Positions 14,104 through 31,650 of a stretch of DNA of 32,000 nt are shown one piece after another (within the stretch, counting starts at the first letter, position 1; each line of letters opens with the position of its first letter). Location: contig NC_003364.1 of the NCBI RefSeq assembly GCF_000007225.1, positions 780,001 through 812,000 of the forward strand. The letters run 5' to 3'. This DNA is from Pyrobaculum aerophilum str. IM2. GTDB taxonomy: Archaea; Thermoproteota; Thermoprotei; Thermoproteales; Thermoproteaceae. The notes beneath the pieces were generated by a model. The model was given only the letters and a program-made list of their open reading frames with translations, was not told where the DNA came from and made no database searches. The position numbers and the translations under genes are program-made.

Positions 14104-14138
14104 GAGGAGATTTTAGTTTCTCTTAATAAAGTTTTTGA

Positions 14139-14684
14139 TTAATCTATTTTCCACAGGGCCAGGCCCAGTAATAAGAAGGAGTACACAATTGGGAAAATTG
14201 AAATTTTTATAAGCGCTGTCCCCAGCGCTTCGTACAGCGGCATTAGGAATGCGCCTAGGGCCATGGCAGTTGCCCCGGCCGCATACGTGTAGCCTGAGTA
14301 CGTGAACAGCCCTATTTTTGATATCCGCGACATCTCTGCTACCAGCAACCAAAAAGGCAGGGCGCTTGCCGCCCATAAGATGCCCACCCAGAGCTCCATC
14401 CGCCCGCCTAAGTATAGCGACAGTAGCGTTAATTTGAGGGTAGCCGCAATGGCTATTGAGCCGGCCACGGCTGTAATAAACCAGACGAAGGCCTTGCGAA
14501 AAATAGAGATCTTGCCGAAATAAGAGGAGGCCCAGCGGAAGGCGAGGAGCAAGAGGATGTGCGCCGCGATGGAAACGGGAAGCAACAGCCCCTCTAAAAT
14601 AAAAGAGAGAGCCCCTATAAAACCAAATACTTTAATGAGACTTGGATCCCGCCTCTCTAACCCACCGCTCATACCACCGTTCAA
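14139..14684 (-). CDS. Polytopic membrane protein of unknown function in the oxidase operon
   Basis: 181-aa ORF with about 5-6 hydrophobic spans and no motif I recognise. The start is uncertain: ATG at 14684 or 14672, both overlapping the upstream small ORF. Confidence 0.5.
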   Translation of the reverse strand: MNGGMSGGLERRDPSLIKVFGFIGALSFILEGLLLPVSIAAHILLLLAFRWASSYFGKISIFRKAFVWFITAVAGSIAIAATLKLTLLSLYLGGRMELWVGILWAASALPFWLLVAEMSRISKIGLFTYSGYTYAAGATAMALGAFLMPLYEALGTALIKISIFPIVYSFLLLGLALWKID

Positions 14685-14826
14685 AGTAGTAATAAGAGAG
14701 GGCCATCATCCCCAACACTAAAAACGCCGAGAACAGCGGAGGGTCAAAGGCAGTTACGGCGTTGATAACGGCGGCGCCTATTAAAACCACGGCGACTACA
14801 AGCGAGAAGACTTTTAATACTCTCAT
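14632..14826 (-). CDS. Small two-TM membrane protein, candidate accessory oxidase subunit
   Basis: MRVLKVFSLVVAVVLIGAAVINAVTAFDPPLFSAFLVLGMMALSYYYFERWYERWVREAGSKSH (64 aa). Its ATG forms an ATGA overlap with the stop codon of the CoxI+III gene. The longer 87-aa version in the ORF track runs into that gene. Confidence 0.5.
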   Translation of the reverse strand: MRVLKVFSLVVAVVLIGAAVINAVTAFDPPLFSAFLVLGMMALSYYYFERWYERWVREAGSKSH

Positions 14827-17228
14827 GCCCTGGCGGCGACTGGCGTAATGCCGTTTATAGCCCCCACGTAGAACGTAATAAACAGCAACACCCATATTGC
14901 GTCTACAAAGTGCCAGTAGTACTCGGCGGCCTCCACCCCGTCGGGCCGGTTAGGCCTCCAGTAGCCCACGGCGACGAATAAAGCCACTAATGCCCAGAAG
15001 ACCAAGCCAACAATCACGTGGAAGCCGTGAAGCGTCACAATGGCGTAGAAGTAATTTGCAATAATTGAGGTGCCGTAGACAAAGCCGTGGTGAGCCAGCT
15101 CTGGGTACTCTATTAAAAACTGGCCGCCGACAAAGAAGATCCCCAGTGCCATAGTGGCGGCGAGCCAAGCGTAAAAGCCCTTTAAATTGCCCTTTAGGAA
15201 GTTCCGCCTGGCGACCATGGCCGTAAAACTACTGCTCCACAACGCAATAGACATGGCGATAGATATCGGCGTTATTAACTGCGGGAGGTTGGCCAAGGCG
15301 GCGTTCCAACCGTCGTACAACACCACCCTCGCGTAATATGCGGAGGAGATCAAAGTGCCGAATAGGGCTATTTCAGACATAATTACCCAAGACACTGAGG
15401 CCTTCAAGTCGCCCCATACGCTGGGCGGCTTCGGGATCTCAAAATGGGCCGCCCCGTTCATGAGACGCAACATCTTAGCCGTTTTGAACTGGTCTAAAAA
15501 CAGCCAGGCCACGCCGAGCCCAATGAAAGTCCCAATTGCCAACATGCCGAATTGCGGCGCGGATAAAAAGGCATAGTTCTTCAAAATAGGCGACACGTCG
15601 CGGAGAAGGGACAAGACGCCCAGCCCAAGAGGTATCATGCCTACGCCTAAAATAAAGGGCCACGGGTTTGGCTCGTGGCGCGGGTGGACTAACGGCGGTA
15701 TTACGTCGGGAAGCCCGTATTTAGACACACCCCAAGGATCCTCTCTGTTGGCCACAGGCCTGCCGTTGAAATAACTATACAGCAGATTGGCGAATAACAA
15801 CGCTACGCCTGCCGCCAGTATAATTGTGAAAGCCGTCATTGCGAAGTGATAGGGGTTGACGTCCGGCGTGGGGGCGGCGGCGTAGCGCCTAGGCGATCCC
15901 AGCACCCCGGCCGCCGACATTAGGGTATAAGTGGCAAAACCTCCTACTGTTATTAAAGCCCAGCTAATCCGCGCCAGCCTTTCGTCGTACCACCTCCCCG
16001 TTAGGTGCGGGAAGTAGTATAACAATGCGCCGAATACTCCGAAGGCAATGGCGTTGACAATGTAGTGGAAGTGCCCCAGGACGAAGTAAGTGTCATGTAG
16101 GTGTAGATCCAGCGTAATCACCGGGAAGAAGACGCCTGTTACGCCCCCCACGATGAAGAAGAGGAGGAAGGTGAGCATGAACAGCATGGGGGCTTTTAGC
16201 TGAATCCTGCCGCCGTAGAGAGTGGCCACCCAGTTAAACACCTTAACGCCGGAGGGTATGGCGACGGCCATAGTGGCTATGGCCATGGCCACTCTGGGCG
16301 CGAAGTCCTGCACGGCGGTGAACATGTGGTGCATCCACACGGCGAAGCTAATAGAGGCAATTGCCACTGAGGAGATGGCTATGGCGGTGTATCCATACGC
16401 CCTCCGCCTGGCCATACGCTGTATGACCTCAGAGACAAGGCCCATGGCCGGCAGTACTAATATGTACACCTCGGGGTGGCCGAAGAACCAGAAGATGTGT
16501 TGAAACAGCCTCGGGTCGCCCGAGGCGGCGGGATCCCCGGGAACTGGGGTGAAGAAGTGCATCCCGAGATGCCTCTCTAAAAGCAACATTATGGCGCCAG
16601 CGGCGAGAGGAGGCAGGGCTGTGACCATGAGCATAGAGGCCGCCAGCACGGACCAGGCAAAGAGCGACATGTCCAGCATTTTAATATCGGGCCTTCTGAG
16701 CCTTGTAATTGTCAATATGAAGTTAATGCCGGTTAAAGTGCTGGAGAACCCCGCTATAATAATCCCGAGGAGAATTAGATCAACGCCAATTGACTTGCTG
16801 ATCGTGCTGAGCGGCGGGTATAACGTCCAGCCGATGGAATCTCCGTGTTGCCAGAACAGGAGGGATGACCACATAAATACGGTGGCGGGCACTTGCATCC
16901 AGAAGGACAAGGCATTTATCCTAGGCCAGTACATGTCGGGCGCCCCGATTAGCTTGGGAACTAGGATATTAGCCGCGCCGGCGACTGCTTGCATGGCGAA
17001 GAGCAACAACATGCCCAAGCCGTGAAGCGACATGAACCAAGTGTAGAGCAACTCATTAAAGGGATCTTGGACGGGGGATCCCGGGGGCGTGTTGGCTATG
17101 GTCAGCCTCATATACATGGCGGCTATTCCTGCCAGTACGAAGTTAATTATCGAGAGCAGTATGTACAATATACCTATATAGTGGGCGTTGGTAGTGGTTA
17201 GGTAGTGGAATAGCTTTTCCCGCATCAT
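14823..17228 (-). CDS. Heme-copper oxidase subunit I+III fusion (SoxM-type, A-family)
   Basis: Subunit I signatures FWFFGHPEVYILVLPAMG and VWMHHMFT. The C-terminal ~240 aa carries the subunit III signature AAEYYWHFVDAIWVLLF. 801 aa in total. Confidence 0.95.
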   Translation of the reverse strand: MMREKLFHYLTTTNAHYIGILYILLSIINFVLAGIAAMYMRLTIANTPPGSPVQDPFNELLYTWFMSLHGLGMLLLFAMQAVAGAANILVPKLIGAPDMYWPRINALSFWMQVPATVFMWSSLLFWQHGDSIGWTLYPPLSTISKSIGVDLILLGIIIAGFSSTLTGINFILTITRLRRPDIKMLDMSLFAWSVLAASMLMVTALPPLAAGAIMLLLERHLGMHFFTPVPGDPAASGDPRLFQHIFWFFGHPEVYILVLPAMGLVSEVIQRMARRRAYGYTAIAISSVAIASISFAVWMHHMFTAVQDFAPRVAMAIATMAVAIPSGVKVFNWVATLYGGRIQLKAPMLFMLTFLLFFIVGGVTGVFFPVITLDLHLHDTYFVLGHFHYIVNAIAFGVFGALLYYFPHLTGRWYDERLARISWALITVGGFATYTLMSAAGVLGSPRRYAAAPTPDVNPYHFAMTAFTIILAAGVALLFANLLYSYFNGRPVANREDPWGVSKYGLPDVIPPLVHPRHEPNPWPFILGVGMIPLGLGVLSLLRDVSPILKNYAFLSAPQFGMLAIGTFIGLGVAWLFLDQFKTAKMLRLMNGAAHFEIPKPPSVWGDLKASVSWVIMSEIALFGTLISSAYYARVVLYDGWNAALANLPQLITPISIAMSIALWSSSFTAMVARRNFLKGNLKGFYAWLAATMALGIFFVGGQFLIEYPELAHHGFVYGTSIIANYFYAIVTLHGFHVIVGLVFWALVALFVAVGYWRPNRPDGVEAAEYYWHFVDAIWVLLFITFYVGAINGITPVAARA

Positions 17229-17674
17229 GGCTCTACCACAATCCGTCCCAACATTCTATAATGGCCTGCTCCGCAGAACTCAGCACAGAGGACGTTGTAT
17301 ACGCCCGGTTTATCCACTTTTAGCCACGCGGTATATACAAAGCCCGGAACTGTGTCGTATTTGTAGCCCAGTTCTCTTATGTAAAAGGAGTGAACGACGT
17401 CACTTGACGTGAGTTCAAGTCTATACAGCTTGCCCGCTTTTATGTACAAGGTGTTCAGCGACTTGCTGCCATTCGGGTACTCAAATATCCAGCCATACCT
17501 ATAGGCAGTGACTTTTATCGTCTCGTACTGGCCAGCGCCAAAGGCGGTTTTCTCCGCGACAGCGCCGTAGTTGTCTATTTCATACAATCCCACGGCGGCT
17601 ATATACGCCAGCACTCCCAAAATAGCCGCGGCGCCGAAAATCGTCATGTATTCCAACAGCTTACCCCTCTCCAT
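17225..17674 (-). CDS. Heme-copper oxidase subunit II (CuA cupredoxin)
   Basis: One N-terminal TM helix plus a cupredoxin domain with CuA ligands VVHSF ... CAEFCGAGHYRM. ATGA overlap with the subunit I+III gene. Confidence 0.9.
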   Translation of the reverse strand: MERGKLLEYMTIFGAAAILGVLAYIAAVGLYEIDNYGAVAEKTAFGAGQYETIKVTAYRYGWIFEYPNGSKSLNTLYIKAGKLYRLELTSSDVVHSFYIRELGYKYDTVPGFVYTAWLKVDKPGVYNVLCAEFCGAGHYRMLGRIVVEP

Positions 17675-17900
17675 GGCCCCTGTCTCTGAACTTATACGTG
17701 AAGTATATCATTGCGCCGATGAAGATAGAGGCCACCACGCCAGCTGATATTATAACGAGAGAATATGCGCTGAAGATAATCTGGCTAATATAAGAGGCAG
17801 GCTCGAAGGGCGGTTTGCCGAAGTTTGTGAGAAAAAGCCACGTGATTAAAATTCCCAACACTATCCCCGCCGTTGCCAAAGTGTCTTTTAGAGACCACAT
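17661..17900 (-). CDS. Small two-TM membrane protein, first gene of the SoxM-type oxidase operon
   Basis: 79 aa with two hydrophobic helices, ending in YFTYKFRDRG. 14-nt overlap with the subunit II gene. TATA-like rc TATATAAATA centred about 25 nt upstream of the ATG. Confidence 0.55.
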   Translation of the reverse strand: MWSLKDTLATAGIVLGILITWLFLTNFGKPPFEPASYISQIIFSAYSLVIISAGVVASIFIGAMIYFTYKFRDRGHGEG

Positions 17901-18071
17901 GTATCCGAAATTATATTTCTATTTATATACTTTTTCTCTCTTTACCCTGTTTACAATTATTTCAATACATAGAATCGCATAAGTATATCTATAGATATTT
18001 TTATGTATATTTATATATACTTTCACACTAAGCGATGGGTTAAAGATATAAAATAGCTCTGGCCGCTCACT
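17901..18071. promoter_or_regulatory. Divergent promoter region between the two respiratory operons
   Basis: 171-nt very AT-rich spacer. TATA-like boxes lie about 25 nt from the minus-strand start at 17900 (17919-17929) and about 23 nt from the plus-strand start at 18072 (GATATAAAAT, 18045-18054). A perfect 14-bp palindrome ATATCTATAGATAT sits at 17985-17998. Confidence 0.6.
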
Positions 18072-18929
18072 ATGCGGAATTTATTCCCCTCCTTTGTGAA
18101 ATACGCCTTTATCTCCGCGCTAGCCACTAGCTTTGTAGGAGGGCTAACGGCGGGGCTGGGACAGGGATTTGACCTAGGGACGCAGTGGCCTGGGCCTGTT
18201 TTGACAATGGTTCTCTTGGCGATATCTGGCAGTTTTGAGCCTATCCACAGATTTCTTACTGTTTTAACGAGCGCCCTCTACGTGGCGGTCTTCGCCTACT
18301 CGTTGCGCATAAGGTCAAGAGTAGTTGTGGGCTTAGCCGCCCTCGCCTTGGCCTTTCTCATCGCCACGGCCCTCACCGGAAGAGCTGTGTTGTTAGTCCT
18401 GGGGGGAGAGATAAAGCCGCCCTTGGCCTTCGCCATATATCCTCTAAATAACTCCCTTGCCTTACTGACTGCGGCTACCATGGCGCTTTTGTGGTCCCTC
18501 GTGACGCCGGTGAAGACCTATTCGCATATTTTGGCATATAGAGGCGCCGCCTTCTGGGGCTTCGTGGCGTCTGTGTCGGGGGCCTATATTTTGGGCTATC
18601 ACAAGATTACAAAAACCCCGCTGTCGTACTCCATCCCCCCGGCGCTCACCGCCTCGGAAATACCTTGGATTATCCACCTCGTCGCCGCGGCGCTCAGCGT
18701 CGCGCTGGCCATTTACGCCTTTCTTAAGAGCGGGGAGAGGGACTTCTGGCACTGGGCCGCGCTCACCTCAGCTCTTGCGCAGCCTATTACCGGCGTGTTG
18801 ATGTTTGTTGGGGCTTCGAGAGACCCTTGGGCCCCGGGGCCTCAGACGGCGTTGCACGCGGCCTTCGCGCACCTCTTAGTCATCTCGGCCTTTGTCATAT
18901 ATGCCAGGGGTAGATTTGGCCGTAGGTAA
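18072..18929 (+). CDS. Putative heme A synthase (CtaA/COX15-like, Cys-less type)
   Basis: About 8 hydrophobic spans. Has an E-x-x-H-R motif (FEPIHRFLT) in an early helix and His residues in later helices (WIIHLVAAAL, LHAAFAHLLV), resembling the two-halves His pattern of CtaA. No Cys residues. Sits opposite the ctaB-containing operon. Function is an inference. Confidence 0.5.
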   Translation: MRNLFPSFVKYAFISALATSFVGGLTAGLGQGFDLGTQWPGPVLTMVLLAISGSFEPIHRFLTVLTSALYVAVFAYSLRIRSRVVVGLAALALAFLIATALTGRAVLLVLGGEIKPPLAFAIYPLNNSLALLTAATMALLWSLVTPVKTYSHILAYRGAAFWGFVASVSGAYILGYHKITKTPLSYSIPPALTASEIPWIIHLVAAALSVALAIYAFLKSGERDFWHWAALTSALAQPITGVLMFVGASRDPWAPGPQTALHAAFAHLLVISAFVIYARGRFGRR

Positions 18930-20872
18930 TGGAGTTGTACCTCCTGGCGGCAGTTGGAATTGCCGCTAACTTAGCCGCTTACTTTAAGCCGAGGCTAGCC
19001 TACATTGCCCCCGCCTCGGCGGCCCTCCCCCTGGCCTTTCTTATTTACCAAACACCCTTAGTATATGTTAACCTCTCTCCCGCGGAGGCGGCGCTTGGCA
19101 AGACGGCAGTTGCCATGTCTACAACCGCAGGCGCCGCCGCCTTCTTGGCGCTGGGATGCGCGGCTCTGTCTAAGAGGTCCAGGCAACTCAGTCTTATCTC
19201 TGCCGTTTTGTTACTAGGCGCCATCCTCGAGGGGGCCCGCCCCTACCCGCAACTAAACCCGGCGGATTACCCGTGGGCGCTGTCTCTCTCTCTTACAACG
19301 CTCGCCAGCCTCTTGCTGTCAGTATACAGCCTTTTAACCCGGCGCGTTGCCGCCGTTAAGTGGGCGTGGCTGGCCGCCTCCTTAGGCCTGTTCTTACAGA
19401 TTATGTGGAACTACACAAGGGGTAATTTGTGGAGCTGGGGCCTAGGCGAGATGGGGATGCTGGCCATGTGGATAGCAACAACTGGCGCCCTGCATTACGG
19501 CCTAAACGCCGCCGTGGCCGCGGGGGCAGGCCTCGGGGCTGTGTCGGGCATTTTGCACGGCTCCGAGTTTGGAATTGCCGCGCTCAGAGGGGCCGCCATC
19601 TTGCTAATAGCAGTAGGGCTTACGAGGAGGCCGGCTGACTTGGGGAGGGCCGTTGCAGGCATGGGAATGGCGGGGTTGGGAGCCGCCTTGTTTTTAACAA
19701 GCTGGGTCGGAGCGGCCTATGCGCTTGTCTACCCCCTGGCCTCCGCGGCGTTTACGGGCACTGCCATGATGGCGGTGTACCACGCCGGTTTGAAGCGCTG
19801 GAAGAGGGTTATGGCCATATACGGGGCTCTTATCGCAGTCAGCGCCGCTCTGTCTCTGACTTGGCGATACGCCTTTGAAAGCACGGCGGCTACAAACTTC
19901 TATGGGTATTTAGTAGCTGGCGGCGCCGCCCTGGCCATCTGGCACGTGGCCAAGTCGCAATACGGAGTTTTACACAAGGCGCTTCACTCCTCTATATTAT
20001 TTATACTGATACTGTTGTCCATAAGCGGGCCGTATATAACAGATCAGGGGTATTATAAGCTACTGGCAGTTGACTATATAGGCGCTAAGTACTATACGCT
20101 CCTAAACTGGCCCTACCCCCAGGCCATAGAAGTAGAGGCAGTCAACTTAACGCTGGACAGGAACGCCCACATCCCAATTACCCCCCTAGACTTCCCCGAC
20201 TACTCCCAATATTTGAAAAAAGTGGGAGGCCCCTTCTCTCTTAAAGGGATAAACTATACAGTGGCGGAGGTGGACGGGAAAAAGTACGTATTTACAAACG
20301 GCACAGCCCTAGTGGAAGTGAACGGCACCGCCGTGTTGTTCCCCGCGCCTCTCGACTTAGTGACCGCCTTGGGAATAGACCCGGGGCTCACGGCTAGGTT
20401 TGTTTACTGTATGCACAACGAGACTTCTGCGGCGCCCAGCGGCGTAGTGTATCGGGTAACGGTAGATGTCGACGGAACTCCCTTGACCTTAAACGCGGGG
20501 TTCAACCTCCTGAAGGCTTCGGGCGGGGGGCTGTACGCCGGCGCTGCATACGTCGGAGGCGTCTTAATCGGCTATCACGTCATGGCAGTGCCCCCAGGGG
20601 TTATTACTCCTGAAGGCGCCTTTTGGAGCGAGGCCGTTGCGAAATACGCCGAGGCCGTGCTAAACCAGTGCAACGCCCGCGTGGCATATACAGCCCTCAG
20701 CCTATTCGGGGCAAGGAATTTAACGGAAGCAGTGGCTTATATTAAAAACGCAGAGGGAATTTGGATATTAGCATTTAAGCCTATACCCCTTTTGGGTATC
20801 CTGATATTAACTATGATAATGACTCTAATAATAAGTATACTCAAAATATTAAATAATTACACAAAAGTATAA
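18929..20872 (+). CDS. Large membrane protein, divergent CcmF/CcsA-like heme-handling protein with a C-terminal extracytoplasmic domain
   Basis: 647 aa. The N-terminal ~375 aa is polytopic. WSWGLGEMGMLAMWIATTGALH (residues 168-189, nt 19430-19495) aligns without gaps to the WWD-domain core W-F-W-D-P-V-E-N-x5-W-x3-T-x3-H of CcmF as I recall it. A ~240-aa soluble domain carries six N-x-[ST] sequons, followed by a terminal TM helix. The ORF is solid; the function is tentative. Confidence 0.45.
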   Translation: MELYLLAAVGIAANLAAYFKPRLAYIAPASAALPLAFLIYQTPLVYVNLSPAEAALGKTAVAMSTTAGAAAFLALGCAALSKRSRQLSLISAVLLLGAILEGARPYPQLNPADYPWALSLSLTTLASLLLSVYSLLTRRVAAVKWAWLAASLGLFLQIMWNYTRGNLWSWGLGEMGMLAMWIATTGALHYGLNAAVAAGAGLGAVSGILHGSEFGIAALRGAAILLIAVGLTRRPADLGRAVAGMGMAGLGAALFLTSWVGAAYALVYPLASAAFTGTAMMAVYHAGLKRWKRVMAIYGALIAVSAALSLTWRYAFESTAATNFYGYLVAGGAALAIWHVAKSQYGVLHKALHSSILFILILLSISGPYITDQGYYKLLAVDYIGAKYYTLLNWPYPQAIEVEAVNLTLDRNAHIPITPLDFPDYSQYLKKVGGPFSLKGINYTVAEVDGKKYVFTNGTALVEVNGTAVLFPAPLDLVTALGIDPGLTARFVYCMHNETSAAPSGVVYRVTVDVDGTPLTLNAGFNLLKASGGGLYAGAAYVGGVLIGYHVMAVPPGVITPEGAFWSEAVAKYAEAVLNQCNARVAYTALSLFGARNLTEAVAYIKNAEGIWILAFKPIPLLGILILTMIMTLIISILKILNNYTKV

Positions 20873-20970
20873 AAAGATCTTTTGTGTTATAAAATCTGTA
20901 TAGATTGATATTCTCTGTGCTCAAAAATATGCTGATAATGCTTAAATATCTATTCCTTACTTCATGTCCC

Positions 20971-21540
20971 ATGAAGATGTTAACCGGTATAATAATAACC
21001 GCGGTAGTGATAATAGCTATAGTCGCCGCGTTAACTCTGTCGGGGCTTGGAGCGGCATCACCTGCGCCTCCCGCAACTACGCCAGCGCCGACAACGCCCT
21101 CTCCCACCGCAACGCCCACGCCAACTACGCCTACGCAAACTCCCCCGCCGCAGGAGGGTGGCGCCATTCAGTACGATCCCAATCTGGCTCAAAAGGGAAT
21201 ACAGTACTTCAAGGAAATTGGATGTACCGCATGTCACTCAATTAAATCGCTCGGCATATCCGGCGGCGCCGTCGGCCCCGATTTAAGCAAGACTTTGATC
21301 TCGCCGGCAACTAACGTGCAGGGACTGGCGAGGTTTTACAAGGAAAACGGCCTTGACAACCCCGCGGCTGATCCCCAAAAGGCCGCCCAGTTGCTGGCCC
21401 AGTATTTGACAAATACGCCTAGCTACTCCACTACCATGGTCAGCCAGACAAACACCTACAAGTCCCTATATGGAGATCAATGGGAGAAGGACTACGTCCC
21501 GGCCCTTGTGGAGATGTTGAAAATGGCGGCTACGAAGTAA
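20971..21540 (+). CDS. Membrane-anchored monoheme c-type cytochrome
   Basis: N-terminal TM helix, a Thr/Pro-rich stalk, then the heme-binding motif CTACH (EIGCTACHSIKS). I prefer the ATG at 20971 (MKMLTGIII...) because CTTAAATATC is centred about 25 nt upstream. The ORF track starts at a TTG at 20905. Confidence 0.85.
   Translation: MKMLTGIIITAVVIIAIVAALTLSGLGAASPAPPATTPAPTTPSPTATPTPTTPTQTPPPQEGGAIQYDPNLAQKGIQYFKEIGCTACHSIKSLGISGGAVGPDLSKTLISPATNVQGLARFYKENGLDNPAADPQKAAQLLAQYLTNTPSYSTTMVSQTNTYKSLYGDQWEKDYVPALVEMLKMAATK
21058..21150 (+). repeat. Low-complexity coding repeat (SPAPPATTPAPTTPSPTATPTPTTPTQTPPP stalk)
   Basis: ACN/CCN codon iterations. This bias generates the spurious antisense ORF 20841..21167 and the out-of-frame ORFs 20964..21245 and 21047..21286. 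Confidence 0.8.
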
Positions 21541-24232: not shown

Positions 24233-24709
24233 ATGCCCTTCCACGGAGAGGAGAAAATCTGGGTGGGAGTTGTGGCGGCCATGACTATTATTTTCCTGGG
24301 GGCATTAGCCTACGCCGCGTGGGTTATCGGCTTGCAAGTCCCCGGCGGCGACGTCCAGCTCGTTGATCCGCAGAAGGCTCTGACAGAGCTGAGGCCCGGG
24401 GTTAGAGAGATCGCCCCCGGCAGATACGAGGTGACAGTAGTGGGGAGGATGTGGCAGTGGTTCCCCAGGAACATCACCTTAGTGGATCCAGTTGAGGTAA
24501 AGTTTAGATTAACTGCACTTGATGTTATTCACGGCTTTCAAATCGTGGGGACGAATGTAAACGTAATGGTGTTTCCGGGATACGTCGCTGAGATTACATG
24601 GAAAGTGCCGCCAGACGCCAAGGGCACTTACCTCGTTATCTGCAACGAGTACTGCGGCTTGGGCCACCACGAAATGTACGGATTTGTAAATATTATACGT
24701 ACAAAATAA
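24233..24709 (+). CDS. cbaB: ba3-type (B-family) oxidase subunit II, CuA
   Basis: One TM helix plus a cupredoxin domain. CuA ligands VIHGF ... CNEYCGLGHHEM. 158 aa, as in B-family subunit II. Confidence 0.9.
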   Translation: MPFHGEEKIWVGVVAAMTIIFLGALAYAAWVIGLQVPGGDVQLVDPQKALTELRPGVREIAPGRYEVTVVGRMWQWFPRNITLVDPVEVKFRLTALDVIHGFQIVGTNVNVMVFPGYVAEITWKVPPDAKGTYLVICNEYCGLGHHEMYGFVNIIRTK

Positions 24710-24754
24710 GTAAAGAAGAGAAAAATTTTTAAATTATTTTTCTTTTTTCTATAC

Positions 24755-26428
24755 ATGGAAGTTCCAAATAAATTTAGAATTGAAGACAGAGTGGCAAAGG
24801 TGGCGCTAGTGTTCAGCTACGTGTTGCTTCTATTAGGCGGCCTGTTTGGGTTTTTACAAGTGCTGAGCAGGACCCCGGGCATGCCAAAACTAGAGACTGC
24901 CCAGCTTTACTACGAGGGGCTGACTCTACACGGCGTAGCCCTCGCTATTTTATGGACTGCGTTTTTCATAGTGGCGCTTGCGGTTTTCGTCATTACGAGG
25001 GAGTTGAATATTAATATGAACGGGCCATTGCTGAGGGCTGGCTGTATATTGGCTGTTGTCGGGTCTTTAATGGGCGCCGTGGCGATACTAAGCGGACAAG
25101 CCACGGTGCTCTATACCTTTTACCCGCCGCTTCAAGCATCTCCTCTCTTCTTTATAGCATTGGCAATTATTTTAATTGGCACGTGGTTCATAGGGGCAGC
25201 CGTGCTAGAAGCCATTTGGAGGTGGAAGAAGCTAAACCCCGGTAAGGAAGTGCCCCTCGCCACATACGGCGTGTTTACTACTATAGCCATATGGCTGTTG
25301 GCCACTCCTCCGTTGGCATACGCTGTGTTGTTTAGATCTCTGCCCATGTCTCTCTTCAACGCCCCTGTTGACGTCTTAGAATGGCGCCTGTGGTTCTGGT
25401 TCTTCGGCCATCCGCTTGTTTACTTCTGGCTGGTGCCCGCCGTAACTATTTGGTACACCATACTGCCTAGGGTTTTGGGCACTGAGGTGTTCAGCAAAAC
25501 AGCGGCTAAGGCTGCCTTTATGTTGTATTTAATCGCATCCGTGCCCGTGGGCTTGCACCACCAGTTTGTAGATCCAGGAGTCCACCCGGTGTATAAATAC
25601 CTCCACACGGTATTAACTTACCTAGTGGCTGTGCCCTCTTTTATCACCGCCTTTAACGTCATAGCCACTTTAGAAAAGGCAGGCCGCATGAGGGGAGGCA
25701 AGGGGCTTTTCGGCTGGATAACGGCTTTACCCTGGGGCAAAGACCCGGTCTTCACCGGCATAACCTTCGCCATTATCCTCTTCGGCATCGCCGGCTTCTC
25801 CGGCGTTGTAAACGCCTCCTTTAACGTCAACTATAATGTCCACAACACCGCCTGGGTTGTCGGCCACTTCCACTTGACAGTAGGTGGCGGCGTCACTCTG
25901 ACTTTCATCGCCACGTCCTTCTTGCTAGTGCCGCTTCTTTTCGGCAGAGACTACGTGGCCAAGAAACTGCTAATCGCCGTGCCCACTCTGTGGTTTGTGG
26001 GCCAGTTAATATTCGGCATTGGCTACCACGTCGCTGGGCTGTTACACGCACCAAGGAGAACGTTTACAGCAGAGGCAGGATACTTAAACGATCCCAATTT
26101 GTTAAACACGCTCCACCTAGTGGGACAGTGGACTCCGTGGCTACAGCTGGGCGCCATTGGCGGGGTGATTTTCGCCCTCGGCGGCGCCTTATTCCTCTTG
26201 TTAACCTTTGTCTCTATTTTCAAAGGGCCTCCGTTTAGAATGGACGGCGCCGCTTTGCAGATCTCGCCGACGCCTGAGAAGGCTACTTTCTTTGACAGAC
26301 TGGGGTTGCTTGTGGGCATTGCGTTAGTGATCATAATAATCGCCTACTCTCTACCCGCCATTGAGATATACACGAGAGGTCTGTCCCCCGCGCCTCCCTA
26401 TTGGCCCACTGGCGCAGCCGCTGGATAA
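24755..26428 (+). CDS. cbaA: ba3-type (B-family) heme-copper oxidase subunit I
   Basis: FWFFGHPLVYFWLVPA, GLHHQFVDPG and VGHFHLTVGG. 557 aa, about 13 hydrophobic spans. TTTTTAAATT about 23 nt upstream of the ATG. Confidence 0.95.
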   Translation: MEVPNKFRIEDRVAKVALVFSYVLLLLGGLFGFLQVLSRTPGMPKLETAQLYYEGLTLHGVALAILWTAFFIVALAVFVITRELNINMNGPLLRAGCILAVVGSLMGAVAILSGQATVLYTFYPPLQASPLFFIALAIILIGTWFIGAAVLEAIWRWKKLNPGKEVPLATYGVFTTIAIWLLATPPLAYAVLFRSLPMSLFNAPVDVLEWRLWFWFFGHPLVYFWLVPAVTIWYTILPRVLGTEVFSKTAAKAAFMLYLIASVPVGLHHQFVDPGVHPVYKYLHTVLTYLVAVPSFITAFNVIATLEKAGRMRGGKGLFGWITALPWGKDPVFTGITFAIILFGIAGFSGVVNASFNVNYNVHNTAWVVGHFHLTVGGGVTLTFIATSFLLVPLLFGRDYVAKKLLIAVPTLWFVGQLIFGIGYHVAGLLHAPRRTFTAEAGYLNDPNLLNTLHLVGQWTPWLQLGAIGGVIFALGGALFLLLTFVSIFKGPPFRMDGAALQISPTPEKATFFDRLGLLVGIALVIIIIAYSLPAIEIYTRGLSPAPPYWPTGAAAG

Positions 26429-26459: not shown

Positions 26460-27083
26460 ATGCCCCGTAAGTATATTCTCCTTTTCCTCGCTATACTCAT
26501 CCCTTTTGTCGTTGCTGTTATAATGCAGTCGCAACTGGGCGCTACGGCTGAGGAACACTCCGGTCTTTTCGAGAGGGTGGTCCCCGTGTGTTATTTGCCC
26601 GGGAGGGAGCCTCCTGCGGCGGATTTTGAGCTTATTAACCAATACGGGGAGAGAGTGCGCCTTTCTGACTACTGGAGCCGCCCTGTGTTAATTACTTTTA
26701 CATATACCTACTGCCCAGACGTCTGTCCCCTGATGAACTTAGTGTTAAACAAGACGCTACCTCTTGTCCCAAATCTATTTGGCGCCGTGTTTGACGTCTC
26801 TCTCGACCCTGATAGAGACACCCCCGAGAGGTTGCTGGCCTATTCCCGCGGCAACCGGTACAACTGGACGTTTCTCACAGGCGACTACGCGACTTTAGAA
26901 AAGGTGTGGAGGGCCTACGGCGTGACTCGCTATGTTGAGAATAGAAACGGCGTGCCTTATATTGCCCACGACGTGTTGTATATAGTTGTTCAAAACGGGA
27001 AAATCCTAGGCCTGGTGAGGGGGCTACCCGCCCCCGAAACTCTAGCCGATTACCTCAAGAAAATAGTCTCTAGGCAGTGTTAA
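26460..27083 (+). CDS. SCO1/SenC copper chaperone / thiol-disulfide oxidoreductase
   Basis: N-terminal TM anchor and a thioredoxin-like fold with YTYCPDVCP (CxxxC) and the distal His in YIAHDVLYIVV. I prefer the ATG at 26460 (AAATTTTTAAAGG centred about 26 nt upstream). The ORF-track start at 26361 lies inside cbaA. Confidence 0.85.
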   Translation: MPRKYILLFLAILIPFVVAVIMQSQLGATAEEHSGLFERVVPVCYLPGREPPAADFELINQYGERVRLSDYWSRPVLITFTYTYCPDVCPLMNLVLNKTLPLVPNLFGAVFDVSLDPDRDTPERLLAYSRGNRYNWTFLTGDYATLEKVWRAYGVTRYVENRNGVPYIAHDVLYIVVQNGKILGLVRGLPAPETLADYLKKIVSRQC

Positions 27084-27448
27084 TGGAGGCCTTAATTCTA
27101 TCTCACATCTCGCGCTGTCCGGGGCCCTACCTTCGGCAGTTGCAAAAAGAGCTAGCCGCGCCGCTGGGCACTTTGGACTACTATTTAACTAAGCTTTTGA
27201 GAAGGGGGGAGATATACAAGCTGGGGAGCAGGCCGCGCTACTTCCCCTCACAGCTAGACGAGCTACAAGCTTGGGCGATATACCTCCTTAGAGAAGGCCC
27301 GCGGGCCTTGGAGGAGGCTGGGCGTTTAAAATGCGGCAAGAGGCTGTGCCCAGAGGTTAGAGATTTGCTTTTACGCTCTGTGGAGAGCTATGAGTGCTTG
27401 AGGCGGGATTTAGTGGACAACTTCATCATCCTCATGTCAATGCTCTAG
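27083..27448 (+). CDS. Winged-helix (ArsR/TrmB-like) DNA-binding protein with a Cys-containing C-terminal region
   Basis: N-terminal wHTH-like YLRQLQKELAAPLGTLDYYLTKLLRRGEIYKLGSRPRYF. C-terminal CGKRLCPEV...YEC, plus SRCPG near the N-terminus. The ATG at 27083 overlaps the SCO1 stop (TAATG); an alternative GTG is at 27077. Confidence 0.55.
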   Translation: MEALILSHISRCPGPYLRQLQKELAAPLGTLDYYLTKLLRRGEIYKLGSRPRYFPSQLDELQAWAIYLLREGPRALEEAGRLKCGKRLCPEVRDLLLRSVESYECLRRDLVDNFIILMSML

Positions 27449-27481
27449 ATCAGCAATGCGATATATATCAACGGGGCTGTA

Positions 27482-27497
27482 CTATAAATTATAAAAG
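27482..27497 (+). promoter_or_regulatory. TATA-like box for the nos-like operon
   Basis: CTATAAATTATAAAAG centred about 29 nt upstream of the ATG at 27518. Confidence 0.4.
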
Positions 27498-27517
27498 AAA
27501 AGGGAATTAAAAGGGCC

Positions 27518-28201
27518 ATGAGGCTGGGCAGTGTATTGGCCGCGGCGATTGTGGCGATAATTGTCGGCGTTGCGGCTTATATGGCCGGCCTCAGCGGGGC
27601 TCAAACAAAGACTGTAACTGTGGAAAAGACGCAGGTAGTTACCTCTACTGTGACCCAGGCCGCGAGGAGGAGCGCGTTAGAGGAGATGATATTAAACGGC
27701 ACTTTCGCCCGTAGGTGTGTTCTCTGCGGCATGGACGCGGCAGAGGCCGTGCATATGGGCGTTTCCGCCGTAGTTGAGTTCTCCACTGGCGTACACGCCA
27801 GGACTGACGACATTGGCTGTATATTTAGAATGGCTATCCTCCCGGCGGAGAAGTGGCCTTTTATAAAGAAGCTTATTGGAAGCAATGTGACGACCGCAGA
27901 GGAGGTCAGGAAGTATTTAGGCGATGTGAAAGAGGTCCTCGTCCCGGACTACGGAGCCCACGTGAGGGGGACTGAATCTTATATAGACGCCAAAAAGGCC
28001 TTTTACGTGATTTTACAAGACAGGAAGACTCCCATGGGCGACTGCGTCTTTGCCTTTTCCAGCAGAGAGGAGGCGGCTAAGTACAACTCCACGGTGTATA
28101 CTTACGACCAAATGCTCCAGCTGTATAAAGAGGTTATGCAGAAGACTGGAATGCCGAGGCCTATGTGGTGCCGCGGGGCAGGCCACATGCACGGCGGATA
28201 G
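27518..28201 (+). CDS. nosL: NosL-family copper chaperone-like protein, membrane-anchored (paralog 1)
   Basis: N-terminal TM helix. C-x-x-C-x-M (RRCVLCGMD), TDDIGCIF, VPDYGAH, KTPMGDCVFAFSSREEAAKY, as in the NosL family (PF05573, from memory). The C-terminal tail MPRPMWCRGAGHMHGG is rich in Met, His and Cys. Confidence 0.65.
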   Translation: MRLGSVLAAAIVAIIVGVAAYMAGLSGAQTKTVTVEKTQVVTSTVTQAARRSALEEMILNGTFARRCVLCGMDAAEAVHMGVSAVVEFSTGVHARTDDIGCIFRMAILPAEKWPFIKKLIGSNVTTAEEVRKYLGDVKEVLVPDYGAHVRGTESYIDAKKAFYVILQDRKTPMGDCVFAFSSREEAAKYNSTVYTYDQMLQLYKEVMQKTGMPRPMWCRGAGHMHGG

Positions 28202-28203
28202 CC

Positions 28204-28818
28204 GTGTTGAAAGTCTCCAGGCGTCTATTTTTCTACCTCCTCGCCGCGGGCGGGATAGGGACTGTCCTCTTTTTTGCCACGCCGCTTTTACAAAGGGAGA
28301 GGGGAGGGGAGATTTACTGCCCCGAGGAGCCGCCGCTTGTATACGGCCGGGAGGAGTGCCCTGTGTGTTTAATGGTAGTGGACTACCCGCCATCATCGGC
28401 CGCGATGAGGGCTAGGATTAGAGGCGTTGAGAGGTGGTATTTCTTTGACGACGTTGGGTGTCTGGCGACGTGGCATAAAGAGGTTTTGAGACAGGGCGGC
28501 GAGGTGTTGGAAATCTGCGTAAGAGACCGCCTCGACGGTAAGTGGATTCGCGGGGATAAGGCGGTTTATTTAATAACCACAGAGTTTACCGCCATGGGCA
28601 CTGGAATAATACCCGCGGCTCCTGGGAATGTAGAGCGGTATAAAAAAGGCGAAGTGGTTGGGCCGTGGCGGGTGAGGAGCGTGGGCGGAGTGGAGGAGTA
28701 CAGCCCTCCCAAGCCCGCCGGGGAGGTGAGGGCTGTGGTTGATTATAAATGTGTATTTGAGAGGTTTTCCTATGGGCCTGCGTGGTCTACTCCTCCTGAT
28801 TGGTATCGCGGCTGTTAG
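28204..28818 (+). CDS. nosL: NosL-family protein with TAT-like signal (paralog 2)
   Basis: A GTG start at 28204 gives MLKVSRRLFFYLLAAGGIGTVLFFATP (S-R-R-x-F-F, twin-arginine-like). Then EECPVCLMVV (C-x-x-C-x-M), FFDDVGCLATW and TAMGTGII. The ORF-track start at 28165 overlaps paralog 1. Confidence 0.65.
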   Translation: MLKVSRRLFFYLLAAGGIGTVLFFATPLLQRERGGEIYCPEEPPLVYGREECPVCLMVVDYPPSSAAMRARIRGVERWYFFDDVGCLATWHKEVLRQGGEVLEICVRDRLDGKWIRGDKAVYLITTEFTAMGTGIIPAAPGNVERYKKGEVVGPWRVRSVGGVEEYSPPKPAGEVRAVVDYKCVFERFSYGPAWSTPPDWYRGC

Positions 28819-29926
28819 CCAGGCGGCCGCGGTGGTTATTGACAAGCCCGGGGTCTATTACGGCATTTCCGCCGAGCGTTTAATAATTAACGCCAGCAAT
28901 GTGGCGGTTTTCAACACAACTGTGAAGGGGGGGTATGTGGAGGCGGCGTTGCCGCAGGGAATGACTGCGTACAGAATAAAGCCGGCCATGGGCTGTGTGG
29001 TAGTGACTGGGAGGAATATAACTCTGGCCGGGGTACGCGTTAATTGTAGCTCGGGGATTTTAGTATTTAACTCCAGCCGGGTGAGGATAGAGGCCGTGAC
29101 GGCGCAGGGATTGGCGGATCTGCCGGTGTACAGGCGGGGGCTGGGCATTTACATATACAACTCCAGTGATGTGCTTATCTCCAAGGCGGATTTGGCCTAT
29201 TTCCATGACTGTATATACGCTGAATATACGCAATCACTAGACATAAGCGGAGCGTCTGCCCGTTATTGTAGATATGGAGCACACGTCATGTTCAGCAAGG
29301 GAGTTCGCCTTAGGGAGTCTAGCTTTAGCGATAATTACGTGGGAGTCGCGTTAATGTACAGCGACGACGTCGTTGTGAGCGACGTGAAGTCTTCTGGCAA
29401 TAGGGAATGGTCTGAGGGGTACGGCTTTTTGCTGGCGGAATTAAGAGGCGTGGTTAAAAACTGCAAGGCTGTGGACAACGTCCACGGCTTTTACGTAATG
29501 TACTGGGGCAACACCGCGTTGAAAATAACTAACTGCACCGTGGAGGGGAATTATTTCGGCGTGACTCTCAGGGGGCGTAACGCCACAGGCGTCGAGTTTA
29601 TTGGAAACGCCTTCAGGGGCAACGTGGTACAAGTCATGCATATAGGGCTCGGCGAGTTGTCCACTGCAGCGCGGTTCGTGGGCAACGTCTGGGGCGGGCA
29701 CGTGACGGCGCGCCCCTATCAGTACATCAGCGTCTTCTCAGACTTAATGTCAGCCAGCGAGGGGGCCTTGGCGTTTTTAGCGGCATCGCCGAGCAGATTC
29801 GCCATAGACTCGGCCATGGGCCGGGTTATTATAGTCGACGAGGCCCCCCGCCCCGACCAGCTCCAAACTCCTGCGTTATTGCTACTCGCCCTTCTCCCCC
29901 TTGTGTTAATATGGAAATCAAAGTGA
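28772..29926 (+). CDS. nosD: NosD-like periplasmic beta-helix (copper-binding) protein with C-terminal TM anchor
   Basis: Signal peptide MGLRGLLLLIGIAAVSQAAA. Parallel beta-helix repeats with NosD-type blocks CRYGAHVMFSKG, NYVGVALMYSDD, GYGFLLAEL, NVHGFYVMY, NYFGVTLRG, GNAFRGNVVQV. Terminal hydrophobic helix ALLLLALLPLVLIW. Confidence 0.8.
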   Translation: MGLRGLLLLIGIAAVSQAAAVVIDKPGVYYGISAERLIINASNVAVFNTTVKGGYVEAALPQGMTAYRIKPAMGCVVVTGRNITLAGVRVNCSSGILVFNSSRVRIEAVTAQGLADLPVYRRGLGIYIYNSSDVLISKADLAYFHDCIYAEYTQSLDISGASARYCRYGAHVMFSKGVRLRESSFSDNYVGVALMYSDDVVVSDVKSSGNREWSEGYGFLLAELRGVVKNCKAVDNVHGFYVMYWGNTALKITNCTVEGNYFGVTLRGRNATGVEFIGNAFRGNVVQVMHIGLGELSTAARFVGNVWGGHVTARPYQYISVFSDLMSASEGALAFLAASPSRFAIDSAMGRVIIVDEAPRPDQLQTPALLLLALLPLVLIWKSK

Positions 29927-30570
29927 GTCTATATAAAAAATTCAGGGGGTTTCAACTCGCTGTGAACGCCAGCTTCAGCCTGCCGGCTTTGTTCTTAGGG
30001 CCTAACGGAAGCGGCAAGTCCACGGCGTTGAAATGCATAGCAGGCCTGTACACGTGCGGGGGGAAAGTGGAGCTAGACGGCAAGGCGGCTGGCGGCGACA
30101 GTTTTCTATACGTCCCCCCAGCCCCTAGAATACCGCCAACTCTTACAGTGGAGGAATATCTTGCCCACGTCTCAGAGATTTTCGGCGTAGACGTCAAGCC
30201 AGCGCTCGGCGTTGATAAGTTTTTAAAAAAGAGAGGTTCTGAGCTCTCCTCCGGAATGGCGGCTAGGGCGGTGCTAGCCGCGGCTCTCTCCACAGACAGA
30301 ATTTTGCTATTAGACGAGCCCCTGTCGTATTTAGAATCCGACGTCAGAATTGAGTTAGTTAAAGCATTGAAAGGCCGGGCTTTTATAGCCGCGACTCACG
30401 ACCCGGGGCCCTTCTTGCCGCTGAGGCCTTCCGTAGTGGCCATATCTGAGGGGAAGTCCGTGAGGGTTGGAAGCTGGGAGGAAGTGGCCGGTTGGTTAAT
30501 TAGAGACTGCGGCGGTGATTTCTGCGTGGAGAAGGTAAAAGCGCCGAGCTTGGCTGGATATGGCCTATAG
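29911..30570 (+). CDS. nosF: NosF-like ABC transporter ATPase
   Basis: Walker A GPNGSGKST, signature LSSGMAARAVLAAAL, Walker B RILLLDEPLSYLE, H-loop ATHD. 16-nt overlap with nosD. Confidence 0.8.
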   Translation: MEIKVSLYKKFRGFQLAVNASFSLPALFLGPNGSGKSTALKCIAGLYTCGGKVELDGKAAGGDSFLYVPPAPRIPPTLTVEEYLAHVSEIFGVDVKPALGVDKFLKKRGSELSSGMAARAVLAAALSTDRILLLDEPLSYLESDVRIELVKALKGRAFIAATHDPGPFLPLRPSVVAISEGKSVRVGSWEEVAGWLIRDCGGDFCVEKVKAPSLAGYGL

Positions 30571-31306
30571 GCTCAAACGCCTTACTTTTAAACGCGATGT
30601 GTACAGCAAGCCTATTGCCTCTCTAATTGCAACGGGGTGGGCCGTCTCGGTATCCCTCGCCTCTCTGGGCTCCTCTTTCGCCGCAGTTATCAGTTCCATA
30701 AATATGCTGGCCCTCGTGGCCTCCCTCATTGCAATGGTATTATCGGCTCACGCCGTCGCGGGGGACAGAGACGGCTTGCTCGAGGCCTATTTATCCGCCT
30801 GGGGGAGGCTTAAATATATAACGGGGCGAATTGCCGCAAATTCCGCAGTATCTGCGCTGTTAGTAGCAATAATATCAACGCCGTATTTAGCGCTGAGGTG
30901 GGAGTGGGCCCCGCCTCTTGGGGCGCTCCTCGCCTCACTGCCCTCTTCTCTCATCGGAACCGCCGTGGGCATCTCCTCAAAAGAGAGGGCCCCCCTCGTC
31001 GCCATTGTTGTGTGGTCCGCGGTCACTTTAATATACGACGTAGTGGTGGCGTTTTTATCGCTAATCCTCCCCCTAGGCGACGAGGCAATACTAGCCCTGC
31101 AAGTTGCCAATTTCTTCAAAGTGGCCACTCTCTTAGCCACTTCTCTAGTAGACCCCTATTTATTAACGCTAGGCCCCCTGGGAGAATTCGTCGTATCGCA
31201 CTGGGGCGTCCAGTGGGCGTACTCAGCGCTCTCCTCAATATACGCCTCGTGGACAATTGCTTTAATTCTCCTCGTCGTAGATCTGGGCAGAAAGGCCGAC
31301 TTATGA
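30560..31306 (+). CDS. nosY: NosY-like ABC-2-type permease
   Basis: 248 aa with about 6 hydrophobic spans. 11-nt overlap with nosF. Assignment rests on position and topology, not on a sequence motif. Confidence 0.6.
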   Translation: MAYRLKRLTFKRDVYSKPIASLIATGWAVSVSLASLGSSFAAVISSINMLALVASLIAMVLSAHAVAGDRDGLLEAYLSAWGRLKYITGRIAANSAVSALLVAIISTPYLALRWEWAPPLGALLASLPSSLIGTAVGISSKERAPLVAIVVWSAVTLIYDVVVAFLSLILPLGDEAILALQVANFFKVATLLATSLVDPYLLTLGPLGEFVVSHWGVQWAYSALSSIYASWTIALILLVVDLGRKADL

Positions 31307-31650
31307 GATCGCTGATATTTTTACTGCTCCCAATCGCGGTGCTTGTATTGTCCTTTGGCCACAGCCACGGCGGGCTTTCCCCCGGCCACATGTTGCTCCA
31401 CGCCCTTACTGTAATAATTGCGTCAGTGTTGCTATACTTCGCCGCGGCGGCTTATTACAGAGTAAAAACGCCGCGGTTTAAGTGGCTATTCTCAGGCTTT
31501 CTCCTACTACTAGCCAGAGAGCTCGTCCTCTCAATCTCCATGTATACATACACAGACATATATGTGCCGTATACTGACATCCCCCTCGACCACATGTTAG
31601 GCCTGGCGGCGCTTATCACCCTCGCTTATGCTATTTTTAAACAATTCTAG
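31303..31650 (+). CDS. Small membrane protein with an N-terminal His cluster, coupled to nosY
   Basis: MRSLIFLLLPIAVLVLSFGHSHGGLSPGHMLLHAL... (115 aa, 3-4 hydrophobic spans). ATGA overlap with the nosY stop. The 250-aa ORF-track entry 30898..31650 is this gene plus an out-of-frame read-through of nosY. Confidence 0.55.
   Translation: MRSLIFLLLPIAVLVLSFGHSHGGLSPGHMLLHALTVIIASVLLYFAAAAYYRVKTPRFKWLFSGFLLLLARELVLSISMYTYTDIYVPYTDIPLDHMLGLAALITLAYAIFKQF

Follow-up and report, generated by a model that had tools for sequence, protein, structure and literature searches.

To our knowledge, NosD, NosF, NosY (NosDFY) and NosL are currently studied only as the assembly line of the nitrous oxide (N2O) reductase NosZ, and NosDFY is said to work as a protein-to-protein relay and not as a transporter. 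The passage of copper from NosL to NosD mounted on a NosFY module is summarised in PMC13068155 and in bioRxiv 10.64898/2025.12.16.694761, and the loading of both the CuA and the CuZ centre of NosZ lies downstream of NosL and NosD (bioRxiv 10.64898/2025.12.16.694761; PMC8457098). Clusters of nosDLYF genes not linked to nosZ have been proposed to feed other cuproenzymes in Bacillus azotoformans (PMC3475470) and Parageobacillus (PMC13068155), and nosFY genes without nosZ are mentioned for Haloferax volcanii in a passage of PMC9240420 that cites Zumft and Kroneck (2006). Here we describe a six-gene cassette of Pyrobaculum aerophilum str. IM2, nosL1-nosL2-nosD-ABC ATPase-permease-X, which lies in a stretch of 32,000 nucleotides (contig NC_003364.1, positions 780,001 to 812,000; referred to as the window, with all positions counted from its first letter). 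Comparison of its sequences indicates that the cassette is a separately maintained paralogue of the Nos accessory genes, neither a maturation system for NosZ nor a decaying remnant. Beyond this, we tentatively read it as a NosZ-independent version of the NosL-NosDFY Cu(I) relay, with a copper centre in one of the haem-copper oxidases of the surrounding respiratory island as its likeliest client; we give this reading a little less than an even chance.

The components of the cassette correspond to those of the machinery of Pseudomonas stutzeri (7O0Y/7OSF) and to Shewanella NosL (7OG7): the same NosL site, a NosD protein of predicted beta-helix fold, an ATP-binding cassette (ABC) ATPase and an ABC-2 permease with six transmembrane (TM) helices. 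Compared with the machinery of the P. stutzeri type, however, the cassette has no nosZ partner, contains two NosL paralogues and includes an extra subunit, X. Its NosD is about 50–80 residues shorter at the N-terminus than canonical NosD of that type and falls far under the NCBIfam cut-off for NosD, its NosY is too divergent for Pfam, unlike canonical NosY, and its NosL proteins have an N-terminal TM tether in place of the lipobox of canonical NosL. NosZ is likewise missing beside the NosDFY-L sets of Bacillus, Neobacillus, Geobacillus and Parageobacillus (nosD-nosL-nosY-nosF), which are the next-best genomic relatives of the cassette NosD (22–27 % identity); these clusters are, however, bacterial, ordered D-L-Y-F, with a single NosL and without X, and no adjacent oxidases were present in the locus examined. 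Such NosZ-less clusters are widespread in the Bacillus cereus group and its relatives (L021, 9716–13121, and 17 other Bacillus-group loci), and no cuproenzyme was found within 10 kb in B. cytotoxicus.

By ORF (open reading frame) positions, the cassette spans 27518–31650 on the plus strand of the window. The gene for NosL1 (27518–28201) is separated by a gap of 2 nt from that for NosL2 (28204–28818), which overlaps nosD (28772–29926) by 47 nt; nosD in turn overlaps by 16 nt the gene of a 219-residue ABC ATPase in the position of NosF (29911–30570), the latter overlaps the gene of the NosY-type permease, PAE1364 (30560–31306), by 11 nt, and a 4-nt overlap leads into the last gene, which encodes the 115-residue membrane protein X (31303–31650). 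These values match exactly the tight packing given in the original prediction, which had been made from the letters of the DNA alone. The start assigned to the operon there, 27077, belongs to the preceding winged helix-turn-helix (wHTH) gene (ATG at 27083) and not to nosL1. The third product is 100 % identical to the 'nosD homolog' of P. aerophilum IM2. In RefSeq, products 1 and 3 are labelled NosL and NosD, products 2, 5 and 6 are hypothetical, and the ATPase is given as a branched-chain amino-acid ABC ATPase. The GenBank and UniProt label of 29911–30570 is 'branched-chain amino acid ABC transporter, ATP-binding protein, putative'; from its context, this gene encodes the ATPase in the NosF position. 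No published account of PAE1360–1365 was found by locus tag. The annotation of a second strain of P. aerophilum joins NosL2 and NosD into one protein of 512 residues (WP_258871790) with the junction within the 47-nt overlap; this fusion could be real or a frameshift artefact.

Two NosL-like proteins had been recognised by their motifs, and the assignment holds for both. NosL1 scored 39.6 bits on the Pfam NosL family (PF05573), the gathering score of which is 24, and NosL2 scored 21.3 bits, about 3 bits under this value, yet with all the metal ligands present. In an alignment of 13 NosL sequences from cassettes, canonical Pyrobaculum clusters and Bacillus, both paralogues included, the NosL1 ligands C67, C70, M72, D97/D98, C101 and M173 were invariant; in NosL2 the CxxCxM motif lies at 52–57, DDVGC at 82–86 and the distal methionine is M131. 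The ligands in the structure of Shewanella denitrificans NosL are Cys59, Cys62 and Met64 of the CxxCxM motif together with Cys88, Asp92 and Met145, and in clade II NosL the order of Cys and Asp is swapped (PMC8457098); in the cassette proteins Asp precedes Cys, which is the order reported for clade II. NosL1 is built from a membrane tether, a Thr/Val-rich stalk and a Met/His/Cys-rich C-terminal tail, the last of which is also found on the NosL of P. ferrireducens. Its identity to the NosL proteins linked to NosZ in P. ferrireducens and in L117, a Pyrobaculum metagenome-assembled genome (MAG), is 45–57 %. NosL2 is a divergent paralogue confined to this type of cassette (61–70 % identity in other cassettes); it carries a C-terminal extension with Cys, and its PDB matches, all weak, were NosL chains only. 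From these features NosL1 is predicted to be a membrane-tethered chaperone that binds and transfers Cu(I).

NosD scored 72.9 bits on PF05048 (gathering score 23.6), and its sole PDB sequence match was P. stutzeri NosD (7O0Y), in agreement with the NosD-like beta-helix protein originally predicted. On NCBIfam TIGR04247 it reached 118.5 bits, under the cut-off of 300; RefSeq uses the NosD name regardless. Residues H171, M173 and M195 (RYGxHxM...M, which in the cassette reads RYGxHxMFS...MY) do not vary among the NosD proteins of the cassettes, more distant NosD and that of P. stutzeri, and may be copper ligands. The protein has an N-terminal signal and a C-terminal membrane anchor. Its AlphaFold2 model is a right-handed beta-helix with a pLDDT (predicted local distance difference test) of 77, and when this model was used in a Foldseek search, 7o0y_A came third by E-value and had the best TM-score (0.47) of the leading matches, although many unrelated beta-helices score alike.

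The ABC ATPase scored 53.7 bits on PF00005, contains the Walker A, signature and Walker B motifs and is 31–34 % identical to NosF from Pyrobaculum nosZ clusters. NosF was not among its 60 best PDB matches and no NosF-specific model matched it. The prediction of a NosF-like ATPase agrees with its motifs and with the similarity to Pyrobaculum NosF, whereas by profile and PDB search the protein is a generic ABC ATPase; it is probably best described as NosF-like by context and by this level of identity. For the permease no Pfam family was found at E ≤ 0.01, PF12679 (ABC2_membrane_2) included. Its HMMER profile matched just 19 of 1.84 billion representatives, and four of the five remote matches scanned fall in PF12679; no match was obtained with this profile among the PDB sequences. 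When the permease was compared with canonical Pyrobaculum NosY, which bears PF12679, hhalign gave a probability of 98.8 % (E 1e-16, 205 columns), and for this reason we regard it as a divergent homologue of NosY, as judged from these alignments. Hydropathy fits approximately six TM helices, in keeping with the earlier call of a six-TM NosY-like permease. The AlphaFold2 model, made from four sequences, had a pLDDT of 41 and was unusable. Among the remote matches of the permease profile was a 452-residue protein in which an ABC2_membrane_2 (NosY-type) permease is fused to a C-terminal cytochrome c domain.

X, which had been described as a His-cluster membrane protein of 115 residues, has four predicted TM helices and is found in every complete cassette, with H22, H29, D92, D96 and H97 invariant. 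Positive-inside reasoning would place these conserved His and Asp residues in two outward-facing loops. No Pfam or NCBIfam family matched X, and relatives outside the cassette were not detected. We also considered X as a relative of the orf184/orf185 family of canonical nos clusters; on comparison the two proved unrelated and the idea was rejected.

It was further claimed that the operon has no nosZ, and we found none in the window or in the next 10 kb. A tblastn search of the window with two Pyrobaculum NosZ sequences matched only the CuA domains of both oxidase subunit II genes (34–36 % identity over about 75 residues), and the 10 kb downstream of the window contain genes for a TrmB-type regulator, EamA, a futalosine-pathway protein and TmcA. 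In addition, a survey of archaeal NosZ lists P. calidifontis and P. sp. 1860 and does not list P. aerophilum (PMC3512248).

Canonical nos clusters occur in the same genus and in the same respiratory island as the cassette, and NosD has a C-terminal anchor in both; the canonical clusters have orf184/185 in place of X and no NosL2. In P. ferrireducens the genes nosL-nosZ-orf185-nosD-nosF-nosY-sco1 lie directly upstream of cbaDBA-sco1, and this cluster provides the nearest outgroups of the cassette proteins (NosL1, 177 bits; NosD, 94; F, 59; Y, 32). The cassette proteins form a clade of their own: NosD shows 38–59 % mutual identity as against 25–33 % to canonical NosD, and D, F and Y are 24–35 % identical to their canonical counterparts. 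Both systems are found together in P. calidifontis (CP000561), where the cassette is followed by a ferredoxin and an MFS gene and then, 1.4 kb away, by a convergent, complete canonical cluster encoding NosZ (715 residues), NosL (160 residues), orf184, NosD (422 residues), an ATPase and NosY (261 residues). The idea that species with NosZ do not have the cassette was accordingly rejected. In L004, a close relative whose cassette NosD clusters with that of P. calidifontis at 90 % or more, the cassette is intact, whereas of the canonical cluster there remain NosY, a NosF with a frameshift and the C-terminal 96 residues of NosD (14209–15884, compared with 14212–20028 in the P. calidifontis locus). 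The presence of both systems in P. calidifontis and the retention of the cassette in L004 without nosZ argue that the cassette is not the maturation system of NosZ. A nosZ that varies together with the operon, which was to have refuted the original prediction, did not emerge: none was seen at most cassette loci, among them those of P. aerophilum, P. arsenaticum and P. oguniense, and the NosZ of P. calidifontis has its own nosL, nosD, nosF and nosY. L004 lacks NosZ, NosL and most of the canonical NosD, as though N2O reduction had recently been lost there by natural deletion.

That the cassette is a functionless relic, left from a nos cluster after the loss of nosZ, appears highly improbable. 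Its closest relatives are indeed the NosZ-linked genes of P. ferrireducens, and deletions are found within the nos clusters of related lineages, namely L004 and the hot-spring metagenome contigs L038, L040 and L047. On the other hand, all six ORFs are intact, the metal ligands are invariant, the overlapping junctions are kept across lineages that have diverged to 37–60 % identity, and the cassette stands beside a canonical cluster in P. calidifontis. The three metagenome contigs have the 3' third of sco1 directly behind nosL-nosZ and no nosD, nosF or nosY within 3.5–5 kb, which looks like a deletion of orf185-nosDFY-5'sco1; these contigs contain many frameshifts and are of doubtful quality, and nothing was built on them.

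The order of the six genes is the same in at least seven independent Pyrobaculum loci with 37–70 % protein identity, which shows that the arrangement is not due to chance. In P. aerophilum the coordinates place the cassette directly after cbaDBA, SCO1 and the wHTH gene, as had been claimed, and the same arrangement is found in P. arsenaticum. In P. oguniense a distance of 22 kb separates cba-SCO1 from the wHTH gene and the cassette downstream, and the suggestion that this species has no cassette was rejected for this reason. The stretch of about 22 kb that lies between SCO1 and wHTH-cassette there (CP003316, 1548462–1570708), where the close relative P. arsenaticum is contiguous, holds genes for PEP (phosphoenolpyruvate)-utilising enzymes, a Rieske oxygenase, an aldehyde dehydrogenase, an FAA hydrolase and ADH, and is probably an insertion. 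P. calidifontis and L004 have the order PCuAC-cba-SCO1-cytochrome c-CtaB-SoxM, followed by the cassette. In MAG L010 the cassette lies between SoxM CoxI/III and PCuAC, adjoining the SoxM type instead of cba, and MAG L012 has a version of 38 % identity with one NosL. In every case the conserved cassettes are thus situated in or near an island of haem-copper oxidase, SCO1 and PCuAC genes. In P. arsenaticum and P. oguniense three polytopic ORFs of 372, 322 and 243 residues, without a family match, follow X (at 17215–20086 and 12913–15782 of the respective loci); they are missing from P. aerophilum and were not counted in the cassette.

Cassettes of this kind are rare, since 5.8 billion protein clusters yielded no more than a handful of relatives of NosD with over 50 % identity. 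Genome contigs were scanned as well. The scan with NosD alone found nothing, and the scan with a NosD alignment recovered P. oguniense and three MAGs, yet missed P. calidifontis and P. aerophilum itself. Both contig scans were therefore incomplete, and absence of the cassette from other genomes does not follow from them.

Upstream of nosL1 there is a conserved dyad, TAGATCA-N25-TGTAC (27446–27482, plus strand), with TGTAC at −40 of the nosL1 start codon; it is a putative operator. It is followed by a TATA-like box, tataaattataaaag (27483–27497, plus strand), read from the sequence, whose centre is some 28 nt 5' of the ATG of nosL1. An A/T-rich box is present at the matching position in all orthologous loci, and the TATA-like box is a likely archaeal promoter element; together with the dyad it indicates that the cassette has its own promoter. 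With the consensus TAG(A/T)(A/T)CA-N25-TGT(A/T)C and unchanged spacing, the dyad precedes nosL1 in every cassette locus. It is also found 5' of the NosZ-linked nosL of P. ferrireducens (L034, 583–619) and of MAG L117 (9186–9222), with about 0.2 matches expected by chance in the 320 kb searched; a regex scan did not find it before the canonical nosZ of P. calidifontis. Since the dyad is common to the cassette and to genuine nosL-nosZ operons, the two seem to be under a common regulator, which is not obviously shared with the oxidase structural genes.

By regex scan and sequence reading, another copy of the dyad, a palindromic one, was recognised on the minus strand of the window, just 3' of the PCuAC gene (12763–12799, within a feature at 12644–12799). 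A TATA-like box follows and then, at the −40 spacing, a hydrophobic ORF of 27 residues (12727–12644), MANLNPLITLSALGVYFHGVYVSLTLT, which lies upstream of the gene for a 470-residue Fer4/CCG iron-sulfur protein (11086–12498). This small ORF may belong to the same regulon as the cassette.

The sharing of the dyad and of NosL1 with genuine nosL-nosZ operons would also suit another role, the maturation of a non-NosZ N2O reductase or of another enzyme with a complex copper cluster, with McoP or some other protein as the client. We consider it improbable. The absence of P. aerophilum from the published list of nosZ-bearing archaea (PMC3512248) is in its favour, and so is the finding that in Paracoccus the NosL/NosDFY route is needed for CuZ rather than for CuA (PMC7558416). 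In addition, McoP, a multicopper oxidase of P. aerophilum with N2O reductase activity in vitro, was proposed in 2010 as a non-NosZ N2O reductase of this organism, according to a passage of PMC7349289 that cites Fernandes et al. (2010). Nevertheless, no candidate client was present in or beside the cassette in the seven loci examined, and P. calidifontis, which has NosZ and its own accessory set, keeps the cassette too. The cassette has also been retained in P. oguniense and P. arsenaticum, which are not known to be denitrifiers. Maturation of a non-NosZ reductase was one of the two readings offered by the original prediction, and it gained no positive evidence from our analysis.

Pfam scans showed that the window comprises a whole aerobic-respiration island. 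The minus strand encodes PCuAC, CtaB and the SoxM-type CoxII and CoxI/III; the plus strand encodes a CcsA-like protein, cytochrome c, Rieske protein, cytochrome b, CbaD, CbaB and CbaA, SCO1, the wHTH protein and the cassette. Two oxidases are candidate clients. The ba3-type oxidase (24233–26428, plus strand) consists of CbaB (24233–24709; Pfam COX2), which carries the CuA site, and CbaA (24755–26428; COX1). The SoxM-type oxidase (14823–17674, minus strand) consists of CoxII (17225–17674; COX2), again with CuA, and a CoxI/III fusion (14823–17228; COX1 and COX3). The CuA motif occurs at 24641 on the plus strand, CNEYCGLGHHEM, in CbaB, and at 17287 on the minus strand, in CoxII, and nowhere else in the window, which is in keeping with the earlier statement that it is confined to the two subunit II genes. 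Two copper chaperones accompany the oxidases: SCO1/SenC (26460–27083, plus strand; 74.7 bits on PF02630), with the motif CPDVCP (CxxxC), and PCuAC (12839–13267, minus strand; 50.8 bits on PF04314). The SCO1/PCuAC pathway is encoded in one island with the cassette and serves the client that is proposed for the latter, and its chaperones likewise act on the outer membrane face, whereas they belong to unrelated protein families and need no ATP. Since both are present, the cassette would be additional to this pathway or upstream of it and not its replacement. No Cox11 family match was obtained among the scanned ORFs of the island.

The wHTH gene between SCO1 and the cassette (27083–27448, plus strand) starts with an ATG that overlaps the SCO1 stop codon and ends 69 nt 5' of nosL1. 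Its product has conserved Cys residues and a weak match to Pfam HTH_HVO_0163_N. The gene stands with the cassette in P. oguniense, whereas P. calidifontis and L117 have it at another place of the island, and its product is a possible regulator of the respiratory island. Further upstream, a 647-residue polytopic ORF (18929–20872) has orthologues with weak Cytochrom_C_asm matches and is probably a cytochrome c synthase of the CcsA/ResB type, to judge from these matches. After it come a mono-haem cytochrome c, the linker of which is rich in Pro and Thr (20905–21540), and then the Rieske protein and cytochrome b; together they resemble a bc-type complex of archaea that has a haem-attachment factor of its own.

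It is also conceivable that the cassette has no dedicated client and provides a general extracytoplasmic supply or buffering of copper, either for several cuproproteins (the oxidases, McoP and blue copper proteins) or against excess copper. We regard this as rather unlikely, yet as deserving more weight than the maturation of a non-NosZ reductase. NosDFY is understood, reportedly, as a protein-to-protein relay and not as a transporter, which does not favour it; moreover, the cassette stands consistently in the oxidase island and not with copper-efflux genes, and no CopA- or CopZ-type family match was found among the scanned ORFs of the window. The second copy of the dyad beside PCuAC and the two differing NosL paralogues in one operon, which could serve separate partners, fit such a general role. 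The same is true of NosL, which is a more widely used metallochaperone, not always in nos clusters (PMC8457098), and of the NosZ-unlinked nosDLYF clusters of Bacillus without a cuproenzyme nearby (PMC3475470).

The reading that we prefer remains that of a relay for the oxidases. In this mechanism, two membrane-tethered NosL proteins on the outer face of the membrane would each hold Cu(I) in a Cys/Met site and pass it to the beta-helix NosD, which would be mounted on a dimer of the NosY-type permease. ATP binding and hydrolysis in the cytoplasmic ATPase would switch NosD between a chaperone-docking and a client-docking state, as NosDFY reportedly does; this ATP-driven hand-over is taken by analogy from the NosDFY-NosL system of P. 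stutzeri. X would be an extra His-rich membrane subunit specific to the cassette version. As client we propose the cupredoxin domain with CuA in CbaB, in the SoxM subunit II or in both, reached directly or by feeding SCO1/PCuAC. Both this client and the role of X are proposals, the former suggested by the conserved gene neighbourhood. An oxidase client is nevertheless the best supported, because the cassette is sited recurrently by cba or SoxM together with SCO1 and PCuAC and because oxidase subunit II and the CuA domain of NosZ are homologues, so that a donor of the NosD type has a structurally related acceptor there.

Several points weigh against an oxidase client. The client is assigned by gene neighbourhood only, and genuine nosZ clusters adjoin SCO1/cba directly in P. 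ferrireducens, while in L117 they adjoin SoxM and the bc complex, so this neighbourhood may simply be a copper-respiration island. The proposal that the cassette inserts copper into the adjacent oxidases, which was the other reading of the original prediction, is for this reason supported by the conserved synteny and at the same time weakened, since nosZ clusters share it. The conventional CuA pathway, SCO1 and PCuAC, is already encoded in the island, and the regex scan gave no dyad in front of the cba or SoxM operons. In Paracoccus, NosZ relies on PCuAC/SenC for its CuA and NosL serves CuZ (PMC7558416), which would make a more complex copper site the natural client of NosDFY. Finally, no NosD-type system was found within 10 kb on either side of SCO1 at the oxidase locus of Thermoproteus uzoniensis, and such a system may thus not be universally required.

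A more far-reaching version may be considered, in which the cassette is an ATP-driven copper inserter for archaeal haem-copper oxidases, acting on CuA or on the membrane-buried CuB, or a builder of multinuclear sites for a non-NosZ enzyme, with X in either case as the hand-over point at the level of the membrane. We hold this to be speculative, and about as doubtful as the maturation of a non-NosZ reductase.

The original prediction considered that either of its readings would be undescribed, which was overstated: RefSeq already names NosL and NosD, NosZ-unlinked clusters have been published (PMC3475470; PMC13068155; and, in the passage mentioned above, PMC9240420), and McoP was proposed in 2010 (as cited in the passage of PMC7349289). 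What is new is a deeply diverged cassette from archaea that has two NosL proteins and a novel subunit. Also new are its systematic siting in an oxidase island, the presence of a canonical system beside it in one genome and the shared promoter dyad.

Database names can be corrected accordingly, the ATPase being labelled as a branched-chain amino-acid transporter and the permease and X as hypothetical. Through the shared dyad, a new archaeal regulator of genes for copper or respiration may become accessible. The coexistence of both systems in P. calidifontis comes near to the cleanest natural demonstration, by comparative genomics, that machines of the NosDFY-NosL type have other clients. Copper delivery to archaeal oxidases is poorly understood, and if the client is a terminal oxidase, the cassette bears directly on it. 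Should the oxidase reading or that of a multinuclear site be true, NosDFY-type relays would be a general class of cuproenzyme assembly systems and not an accessory specific to NosZ.

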